Shown here piece after piece: positions 2,551 through 2,898 of a stretch of 5,871 bases of DNA. Both the position numbers and the translations under genes were made by a program. The stretch is from positions 1-5,871 of the IMG/VR virus record IMGVR_UViG_3300029515_000107; one strand, written 5' to 3'. The notes beneath the pieces were generated by a model. It saw nothing but the letters and a program-made list of their open reading frames with translations, ran no database searches and had not been told where the DNA came from. How positions within the stretch are numbered: position 1 is the stretch's first letter; every line of letters starts with the position of its first letter. This DNA comes from a virus.

Positions 2551-2811
2551 ATGAATAACTATTACATTACGTTCGGCAGTGAGGGACAACCATTTAAGGG
2601 CGGTTGGATAATCATTGAGGCGGAAACAATAGAGCAAGCGTGCAAGATTTTCAGAGCGATGTATCAATACAAGGAAACTAACGATACACTGTTAAAATTC
2701 TGCTCAATATACACAGAAGAAGGCTTTAAGCAAACAGAAATGTACAAAAGCAACGACAATCTCGGAGCAGGTTGCCACTGCAAAGTAAGTATAAAAAAAG
2801 AGACCGTATGA
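2551..2811 (+). CDS. Hypothetical phage protein (86 aa)
   Basis: ORF track 2551..2811. GGAGGTGA SD at 2537-2544. The N-terminus MNNYYITFGSEGQPFKGGWIIIEAETIEQA resembles a recurrent small phage early-protein pattern. This is from memory and is not a verified family. Confidence 0.75.
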   Translation: MNNYYITFGSEGQPFKGGWIIIEAETIEQACKIFRAMYQYKETNDTLLKFCSIYTEEGFKQTEMYKSNDNLGAGCHCKVSIKKETV

Positions 2812-2865
2812 GCTGGCACTCATAAACGGTCAAATAACAAAAACACATAGATTATTAATCTATGT
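2793..2865 (-). ncRNA. Predicted ~70-nt leftward antisense sRNA (OOP-like)
   Basis: The promoter at 2870-2898 places +1 at about 2863-2865, which is the first base of the perfect palindrome ACATAGATTA-A-TAATCTATGT (2865-2845). A U-rich linker GUUUUUGUUAUUU follows, then the bulged terminator hairpin and U7. The RNA is antisense to the last 19 nt, including the stop codon, of gene 2551..2811. Confidence 0.5.
2802..2831 (-). terminator. Strand-specific (leftward) intrinsic terminator
   Basis: The minus strand reads GACCG-uu-UAUGAG-ugccag-CUCAUA-CGGUC (11 bp with a 2-nt bulge), followed by UCUUUUUUU (complement of 2793-2801). On the plus strand the hairpin is followed by AAATAACAAAAAC, with no U tract. 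Confidence 0.6.
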
Positions 2866-2869
2866 CAAC

Positions 2870-2898
2870 ATTATACCACAGAAAGGAACGAAAATCAA
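2870..2898 (-). promoter_or_regulatory. Leftward promoter driving the predicted sRNA
   Basis: The minus strand reads TTGATT (2898-2893), a 17-nt spacer, then TGgTATAAT (2878-2870), a perfect extended -10. The -35 box overlaps the ATG (2898-2900) of the SMC-like gene on the other strand. Confidence 0.6.

Follow-up and report, generated by a model that had tools for sequence, protein, structure and literature searches.

A predicted leftward antisense RNA at the entry to the recombination module of a temperate gut phage and its candidate family in Firmicutes phages

Almost all known regulatory RNAs of bacteriophages come from phages with Gram-negative hosts, and a review of 2025 lists none from Gram-positive or clostridial hosts (PMC12197685). 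Does a short intergenic segment of a gut phage, invisible to ORF-based annotation, specify an RNA of this kind? The segment lies within positions 1 to 5,871 of the IMG/VR record IMGVR_UViG_3300029515_000107, and this whole stretch of 5,871 nucleotides is referred to below as the window. In this window, the early region of a temperate phage, a consensus promoter (517-545) stands ahead of a Cro-like HTH gene (583-792), and small ORFs follow downstream. On the plus strand, gene 2551-2811 encodes an 86-aa protein of phrog_28990. Beyond the segment are found the genes for an SMC/SbcC-like ATPase (2898-4166; phrog_1499), a Sak4-like protein (4145-5296) and a DUF669-type protein (5296-5772), and in relatives a helicase gene is next in line. 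The ATPase start at 2898 is backed by the gene calls of relatives and by a conserved N-terminus, MIKIN. The initial annotation had read the segment between the 86-aa gene and the ATPase gene as a minus-strand small RNA gene resembling OOP of phage lambda.

The near-consensus promoter on which this reading depends is present as claimed, with the -35 box TTGATT (2893-2898), a 17-nt spacer and the extended -10 box TGgTATAAT (2870-2878), all on the minus strand. The promoter scan gave it 10/12 plus the TG, as expected of an extended -10 promoter for sigma-A/sigma-70. It lies directly above the plus-strand translation signals of the ATPase gene (2882-2900), namely the Shine-Dalgarno sequence (SD) AAAGGA (2882-2887) and the ATG (2898-2900), and the asserted overlap of the -35 box with the start codon amounts to one common base, 2898, which is also the A of the ATG. 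The usual spacing of 5-7 nt from the -10 box places the predicted transcription start at A2863 or A2865 (minus strand). A2863, 7 nt past the end of the -10 box at 2870, is the likeliest position, and the start proposed at the first base of the palindrome (A2865) stays possible as an approximation. A LexA (Cheo-box-like) match was absent from the surroundings of 2860-2900 at up to 2 mismatches, and the search for a switch-operator copy near the promoter returned none; this lack of both types of site points to constitutive production.

The predicted non-coding RNA of about 69-73 nt (2793-2865, minus strand) is the sum of four parts. It would begin with a perfect 21-bp palindrome (10-1-10; 2845-2865), folding into a 5' stem-loop with a stem of 9 bp and a 3-nt loop, and continue through the single-stranded U-rich linker GUUUUUGUUAUUU of 13 nt (2832-2844) into a bipartite terminator hairpin (2802-2831) and the U tract UCUUUUUUU (2793-2801). 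The plus-strand complement of this U tract is an A tract that supplies the codons for KK and E in the upstream gene. The hairpin consists of an outer stem of 6 bp (GACCGU/ACGGUC), a 2-nt bulge, an inner stem of 5-6 bp (AUGAG/CUCAU) and the hexaloop UGCCAG (2818-2813). Folding of the minus-strand RNA 2865-2790 produced exactly these two hairpins, with a minimum free energy of -22.9 kcal/mol (z = -6.5) that none of the 200 shuffles attained. The plus strand folded nearly as well (-20.7 kcal/mol), and a U tract follows neither hairpin there, as the initial annotation had also stated; its palindrome was found intact, and its bulged hairpin with U tract was recovered both in the sequence and in the RNA fold. 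A GC-rich hairpin with a U tract right behind it on the transcribed strand is what defines a Rho-independent terminator, and the element shows this on the minus strand alone. Our simple terminator scan did not list the 2831-2802 hairpin because of its 2-nt bulge. Taken together with the comparative evidence given below, a discrete leftward transcription unit of about 70 nt is strongly backed as a prediction, and the same evidence lends good support to reading it as the gene of a small leftward antisense RNA.

Other classes of small elements fit the segment poorly. The predicted RNA holds no SD-led ORF. We found no conserved small hydrophobic toxin ORF opposite the unit, as a type I toxin-antitoxin system would have, and the interchangeability of the flanking genes also counts against such a system. 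An Rfam cmscan of the window (E <= 10) and of 10 member loci of the family described below (E <= 1) gave no match at the element, a result that bears on OOP only if Rfam holds an OOP model. BLASTN of positions 2400-3300 against GenBank phages matched only the coding part of the ATPase gene.

Comparison of close relatives delimited the element sharply. In mosaic relatives homology starts at the A/U tract and stops at the -35 box/ATG (alignment A4), and hence the conserved block of about 105 bases (2793-2898) is the predicted transcription unit and nothing else. Recombination was detected inside this block as well. The unit was present in 32 of 32 close ATPase relatives, a sample picked via the ATPase and blind to the element, and in 10 of 10 contigs encoding the exact 86-aa protein; the 42 contigs retrieved via the palindrome all have the element. 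Its modular mobility is evident from its neighbours: it is kept beside at least five unrelated 3' ends of upstream genes, with the T-rich tract behind the hairpin retained in every one of these contexts, and beside three unrelated downstream genes (the ATPase gene, a gene of 122 aa and a YfdP-like gene heading a RecT module). If functional, it would offer a concrete case in which an intergenic unit and a mosaic-exchange junction match exactly.

These data also bear on the target. On the RNA strand the stop codon TGA of gene 2551-2811 (2809-2811) falls inside the 3' arm of the terminator, and the last 19 nt of the gene overlap the predicted 3' end of the RNA. The initial annotation was thus right that the RNA would be antisense to the end of this gene; as a conserved role the claim fails, since the unit is kept while the upstream gene is swapped.

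Among 26 sequence variants of the window lineage, the -35 box, the -10 box, the outer stem and the GAG/CUC of the inner stem are fixed, and the spacer, the linker, the bulge and 4 of the 6 loop columns vary. The -10 region TGTGGTATAAT was identical in 26/26, and conservation of this box among relatives was one of the checks that the initial annotation had proposed. In the L003 type the spacer (16/17 nt) and the -10-to-hairpin distance are wholly different, yet TTGATT and TGTGGTATAAT are unchanged. Sister variants carry AAUUACCUUU(U) in exchange for the linker GUUUUUGUUAUUU, the palindrome occurs in relatives in versions of 21, 18 (9+9) and 7-4-7, and the inner terminator stem is only 3 bp long in several sister variants. 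Hexaloops within one lineage comprise UGCCAG, UUGCCG, UUGCAC, UGCCCA and UUCCAG. Searching viral contigs with the pattern TCTATGT-N-ATTATACCA yielded mostly chance occurrences among the matches listed, and the output was then filtered.

The same architecture, on the same strand, was found in at least 18 sequence-diverged lineages, including, with a different sequence, the region upstream of ATPase homologues that are only 63-72% identical. Read along the plus strand, the family shows an A tract, a GC-rich bipartite hairpin, 15-35 AT-rich bases, ATTATA(nC)A, an SD and an ATG. The minus strand accordingly offers a sigma-A promoter abutting the SD/ATG, an AU-rich 5' part of 20-37 nt, a GC hairpin and a U tract. 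Members are found in many temperate phages of Firmicutes, in every case running against early rightward transcription and directly before a rightward early gene. The commonest downstream gene is that of the SMC/SbcC-like ATPase heading a Sak4 recombination/replication module; other early genes take this place in L218, L219a, L258/260, L185x and L234x. Named phages with a family member are the Bacillus clarkii phage BCJA1c and the lemur-gut virus Dulem virus 35. Two copies flank a two-gene insert in L219. The 5' palindrome is limited to the window and L003 lineages, and most members have an unstructured AU-rich 5' tail, so that the general layout is a 5' tail plus terminator. The initial proposal of a leftward unit of about 70 nt with its own promoter and terminator therefore stands, and the 5' stem-loop that it included is a lineage-specific feature.

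The promoters support this strand assignment. Minus-strand scores in the family were 9.5-14, against a background with a median of 7.5 and a 95th percentile of 9.5, and the family median equals the 99th percentile of the background; the plus strand of the same segments scored 7-9. Boxes of the TGnTATAAT type occur in 10 of 14 diverged lineages. The best examples are L223 (TTGACA-17-TGaTATAAT, 12/12) and L222 (TTGACA-17-TATTAT, 11/12, plus terminator). In contrast to that of the window, the equivalent hairpins of L222 and BCJA1c were picked up by the terminator scan. The hexaloop follows the consensus U(NNNN)G, with UUGCCG in eight lineages, UGCCAG in the window and L219b, and UUGCAG, UUGGCG (L218), UUCCCG, UGGCAG, UUGCUG and UGUCCG elsewhere; L220 has CGCCAA. 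UUGC-type hexaloops are confined to family members and absent from 125 other terminator-like hairpins of the same loci. Members also have a loose 5' motif in common.

Presence of the unit is by no means universal. It is missing, without a gap in its place, in about 30 of 43 distant ATPase relatives, and likewise in phages of Streptococcus, Faecalibacterium, Flavonifractor and Enterococcus; phages without it include the Streptococcus Javan phages, phiKSM96, Castelnaud, Aster, FP_Lugh, EFC-1 and the L242-250 clade. In many of these relatives its absence is due to the ATPase gene overlapping the preceding ORF. The number of relatives without the unit indicates that it is a dispensable, optional and portable accessory. 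A doubtful family-like match in L243/L249, located within an open reading frame, was not counted as a member.

Pairing in the family was assessed on the loop-anchored inner helix only, to which the covariance model (CM) is likewise restricted, since the outer stems could not be put in register by MAFFT. The stem adjoining the hexaloop differs completely between lineages, and the inner helix is nonetheless 88.9% paired. It contains 32 double-change cells versus 9.3 +/- 2.4 in shuffles, a count reached by 0 of 500 shuffles, and these pairing statistics are inflated to the extent that some members were found by a hairpin descriptor. RNAalifold returned the same helix from an unfitted MAFFT alignment, with a U-G closing pair in 15/15 sequences. 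Compensatory changes, proposed at the outset as a check for both stems, are therefore seen family-wide in the inner terminator stem; within the window lineage almost no informative covariation is found in either hairpin, because the sequences are too close.

The CM was built from 12 members, none of them of the window lineage, and applied out of sample. Its only significant match in the window was 2789-2842 on the minus strand (26.3 bits, E = 2.6e-4); the next match reached 11.6 bits, and the other strong terminator of the window 9.8 bits. In 479 kb of ATPase-related loci the CM produced 36 matches, all 36 of them antisense to the ATPase gene and upstream of it, and in 879 kb of unrelated phage contigs it produced 0. 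The window element is thus a member of a compact family that is recognisable by a covariance model. The pattern is far beyond chance, and recurrence of the layout suggests that it is probably a real, previously undescribed regulatory RNA.

How might such an RNA act? We favour, at roughly even odds (about 0.5), a cis-encoded countertranscript that lowers expression of the downstream module from a self-contained RNA gene of about 70 nt. Its strong sigma-A extended -10 promoter would overlie the SD and ATG of the gene that heads the module, and the RNA would be made constitutively, also in the lysogen while the early promoter is off. The RNA would then pair with any rightward transcript that crosses the intergenic leader, through its single-stranded 5' part or linker together with complementary hairpin loops. 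Duplex-dependent cleavage or decay, or interference with translation initiation just downstream, would lower module expression, and promoter collision may add to the effect. In the window lineage the 5' hairpin would stabilise the RNA and probably protect its 5' end; the full symmetry of the palindrome leaves room for a second role, in which it may be a protein-binding site. The predicted 5' end of the RNA lies about 18 nt upstream of the SD and leaves the SD uncovered, so that there is no evident way for it to block the ribosome-binding site directly. When each predicted sRNA was compared by RNAduplex with the translation-initiation region of the gene downstream of it, no signal rose consistently above the shuffles. 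Should the countertranscript reading hold, it would add an RNA layer to the control of recombination/replication modules in temperate Firmicutes phages.

Among known antisense RNAs the closest in architecture, and the best studied of such equivalents, is RNAII of pMV158, a countertranscript of 48 nt from the streptococcal rolling-circle plasmids. In RNAII an AU-rich 5' tail of 17 nt precedes a rho-independent terminator. Encoded antisense in the intergenic region of the copG-repB operon, it is wholly complementary to the mRNA immediately before the translation signals of repB, whose translation it inhibits (PMC4485353). Folds across the phage family likewise show an AU-rich 5' tail ahead of one GC-rich rho-independent terminator, and the predicted RNAs are intergenic, antisense and placed just upstream of the translation signals of a replication-module gene, again in a mobile element of Firmicutes. 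There are also differences. Sequence similarity and a CopG-like partner are lacking, the carrier is a phage and not a plasmid, and the gene downstream encodes an SMC/SbcC-like ATPase or another early product instead of a Rep initiator. In the window lineage, moreover, the 5' tail is folded into a hairpin that leaves a single-stranded linker of 13 nt, and the hexaloop is conserved here, whereas the loop of RNAII plays a secondary role. Given the ATPase/Sak4 phage context and the lack of an RNA-family match, the resemblance to RNAII is one of working principle, not of membership.

In its position the unit resembles lambda OOP, an RNA of 77 nt whose promoter, pO, lies within the beginning of gene O; OOP is antisense to 52 nt of the 3' end of cII and works via RNase III (PMC5869508, PMC12197685). 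Both would be short leftward units with an intrinsic terminator (predicted in our case), convergent with early rightward transcription and placed between the regulatory block and the replication genes, with the promoter at the start of the first such gene. The OOP analogy of the initial annotation consequently holds for position and breaks down for a cII-like target: cII is the target of OOP, whereas the 19-nt overlap seen here concerns an interchangeable upstream gene. Homology to OOP and a LexA box are also lacking, and the hosts are Gram-positive. The most fitting label by analogy would be a new family of Firmicutes phage countertranscripts, working most like pMV158 RNAII and placed like lambda OOP.

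Two further comparisons are more distant. The antisense RNAs of plasmid replication control that act by loop kissing (CopA/CopT, Inc RNA, RNAI/RNAII and pIP501 RNAIII) share with the family a GC-rich hexaloop borne on a stem and a complementary loop in the sense RNA; a leader peptide, attenuator or pseudoknot target is not apparent here. The family loops UUGCCG, UUGGCG (L218) and CGCCAA (L220) are closely similar to UUGGCG, which we take to be the loop motif of Inc/CopA-type RNAs. A role of the U-turn (YUNR) in such loops has been described (PMC4485353); the window loop UGCCAG with its complement CUGGCA, and UUGCCG with its complement CGGCAA, do not fit this motif, and a fit was seen only in L218 (UUGGCG) and in the sense strand of L220. 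ArrA of Bacillus subtilis is an antisense RNA in the 5' UTR of dnaA that lowers mRNA and protein of the operon (PMC12112137). It is comparable as a Firmicutes antisense RNA over the untranslated leader of a replication-gene operon, and differs in being chromosomal, DnaA-regulated and unrelated in sequence and size.

A rather unlikely alternative regards the RNA as a by-product without a pairing function. In such a device, made of a convergent promoter and a tight terminator, occupancy by RNA polymerase and its collision at the module entry would do the regulatory work, as transcriptional interference or insulation. This would explain why the promoter always lies on the SD/ATG of a rightward gene, why the terminator would limit transcription to about 70 nt and why linker and spacer sequences vary freely. 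Interference needs no particular loop, however, and the U(NNNN)G loop (mostly UUGCCG) is kept across completely diverged stems and is missing from 120 or more other terminator-like hairpins of the same loci; nor does interference alone need the loose 5' motif. The conserved loop argues that the RNA itself matters and not just the act of transcription.

If the RNA is what matters, it could instead be made in the lysogen and act in trans as an sRNA of a prophage 'moron', on host mRNAs or on superinfecting related phages (immunity or incompatibility), for which STnc6030 of prophage BTP1 is a precedent (PMC12197685). The unit is self-contained, is portable between genomes and has a constitutive-looking promoter free of a nearby LexA box or switch operator, and its variation centres on loop and linker, as in plasmid incompatibility RNAs (PMC4485353). 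We consider a trans-acting role unlikely, given that no conserved single-stranded seed extends beyond the hexaloop and that the duplex search against ATPase translation-initiation regions found nothing above shuffles. A relic of a deleted moron was ruled out by the occurrence of the same short layout in at least 18 lineages.

Equally improbable, in our estimate, is a more specific proposal in which the RNA is a specificity determinant: the prophage countertranscript would shut the recombination/replication module of an incoming phage with a matching junction, and the same block would serve as a linker for module exchange. On this proposal, variants of loop and linker would define immunity groups, and the conserved block would double as a homologous linker for the exchange of early-gene modules.

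A role at the level of DNA, with the palindrome as operator of a dimeric regulator and/or the block as a recombination linker or origin-associated structure, is very improbable; the promoter-like and terminator-like features would then count as DNA alone. The perfect palindrome has a symmetry that extends through its centre, as a dimeric DNA-binding protein would require and an RNA hairpin would not, and the block is an exact module-exchange junction with recombination inside it. Furthermore, very similar palindromes (ATACATAGAT..ATCTATGTAT) right after GGTATAAT boxes are autoregulatory sites of PadR-like genes in Lachnospiraceae MAGs. These PadR/ACR3 operator look-alikes came from a scan of a genome collection, the pattern of which forced the layout of palindrome plus -10 box and for which about 6 chance matches were expected. 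Against an operator, the arm spacing shifts by 3 bp between the palindrome variants (21, 18, 7-4-7), which is awkward for a dimer; the palindrome is retained beside different types of CI/Cro and different small HTH genes, is missing from most family members and has no second full copy in the phage, where one isolated half-site occurs in some relatives. The covariation of the stems, moreover, indicates a folded single strand.

A sense-strand element, in which hairpins of the rightward early mRNA form a processing site, a decay barrier or a boxB-like structure with the loop CNGCAA, is hardly credible: the plus strand does fold well and the conserved loop is readable on either strand, but the minus strand is the more stable one in 14 of 17 members (owing to G-U pairs), and the U tract behind the hairpin and, in all lineages, the near-consensus promoter with TG are found on the minus strand only.

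Hominilimicola (Clostridia) is the probable host, as suggested by the names that identical proteins bear; this assignment rests on protein names, since the prophage was not among the results of the genome-collection scan. A small portable part combining promoter, terminator and RNA could be of use for engineering phages of gut Clostridia. In metagenomes of the human gut the element is very abundant, with the neighbouring 86-aa protein present in more than 1100 data blocks; the phage, too, is very common in gut metagenomes, where contigs carrying it reach 414 kb.

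The SMC/SbcC-like ATPase gene (phrog_1499) lies directly to the right of the predicted leftward ncRNA gene. The mechanically called ORF opens with an ATG at 2862, inside the window palindrome (2845-2865), and encodes 434 aa; in the database clusters the ATPase is present as both 434-aa and 422-aa versions. Homologues and the Shine-Dalgarno sequence support 2898, and not 2862, as the predicted start. Annotating the ATPase from 2862 would hide the intergenic element.

In one phage, L219, the predicted ncRNA unit is present twice, at 1140-1260 and 2386-2443. These copies have a 5' tail in common (GUAAGUGAUUUAUUAGCUUU) and differ in their hairpins, with loops UUGCCG and UGCCAG, and between them lies a two-gene insert made up of a YfdP-like gene and a gene for a 247-aa product. 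This arrangement suggests that the unit duplicates or serves as a cassette border. Furthermore, a family-like arrangement of TTGACA-17-TATACT, a hairpin with loop UGCCAG and a T tract was found in L243 (approximately 600-700) and in L249, both from the L242-250 clade. It lies upstream of the ATPase, in a reading frame that continues through it without interruption, and could be either a chance occurrence or a coding-embedded unit.

Palindromes resembling that of the window were also found in bacterial genomes, namely in Lachnospiraceae/Clostridia MAGs (L170, L171, L174 and L176) and in Enterococcus (L172, L173 and L175). Palindromes of the form ATACATAGAT-N2-4-ATCTATGTAT lie immediately 3' of GGTATAAT boxes upstream of PadR-like genes, where an additional half-site is located within the promoter spacer, and similar ones precede an ACR3 arsenite transporter in Enterococcus. 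They have the look of operators and are similar to the window palindrome, but the arrangement was imposed by the search pattern itself.

Within the window, AATTTCAGAA-A-TTCTGAAATT (481-501) is another perfect palindrome of the 10-1-10 type. It occurs a single time, 16 bp upstream of a promoter matching the consensus at 12 of 12 positions (TTGACA-17-TATAAT, 517-545) ahead of the Cro-like gene (583-792). In the lysis-lysogeny switch, the two probably serve as operator and PR. Immediately downstream of the Cro-like gene there is a strong leftward terminator with a 12-bp stem plus T7 (798-825, minus strand), which was excluded from the family because it scored only 9.8 bits with the family covariance model.

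The early region also has a moron gene in leftward orientation that encodes a 72-aa protein (phrog_3240; 1491-1709, minus strand) and has its own leftward promoter, TTGTGA-17-TATAAT (TG), at 1761-1733, and thus contains several backward-facing units. A 17-nt inverted repeat (1702-1745) overlaps this promoter and the start of the moron gene. Another, perfect over 12 bp (1415-1455), is located within ORF 1319-1504, close to the convergent end of the moron gene, and caused a spurious Rfam match to mir-737 (34.6 bits versus a gathering threshold of 60).

Repeats were furthermore found within coding sequences. In the sister phages L003 (1811-2356), L020, L043, L049 and L140, an early gene for 181 aa contains a tandem array of 18-bp, GGTGTGCGGCAATGCAAA-like coding repeats, with up to about 15 copies and a copy number that differs from contig to contig. 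In the Sak4-like gene of the window, a 30-nt direct repeat (4917-5006; spacing 60 nt, 73% identity) falls in the low-complexity C-terminal stretch, a region whose length differs among relatives (367-383 aa).
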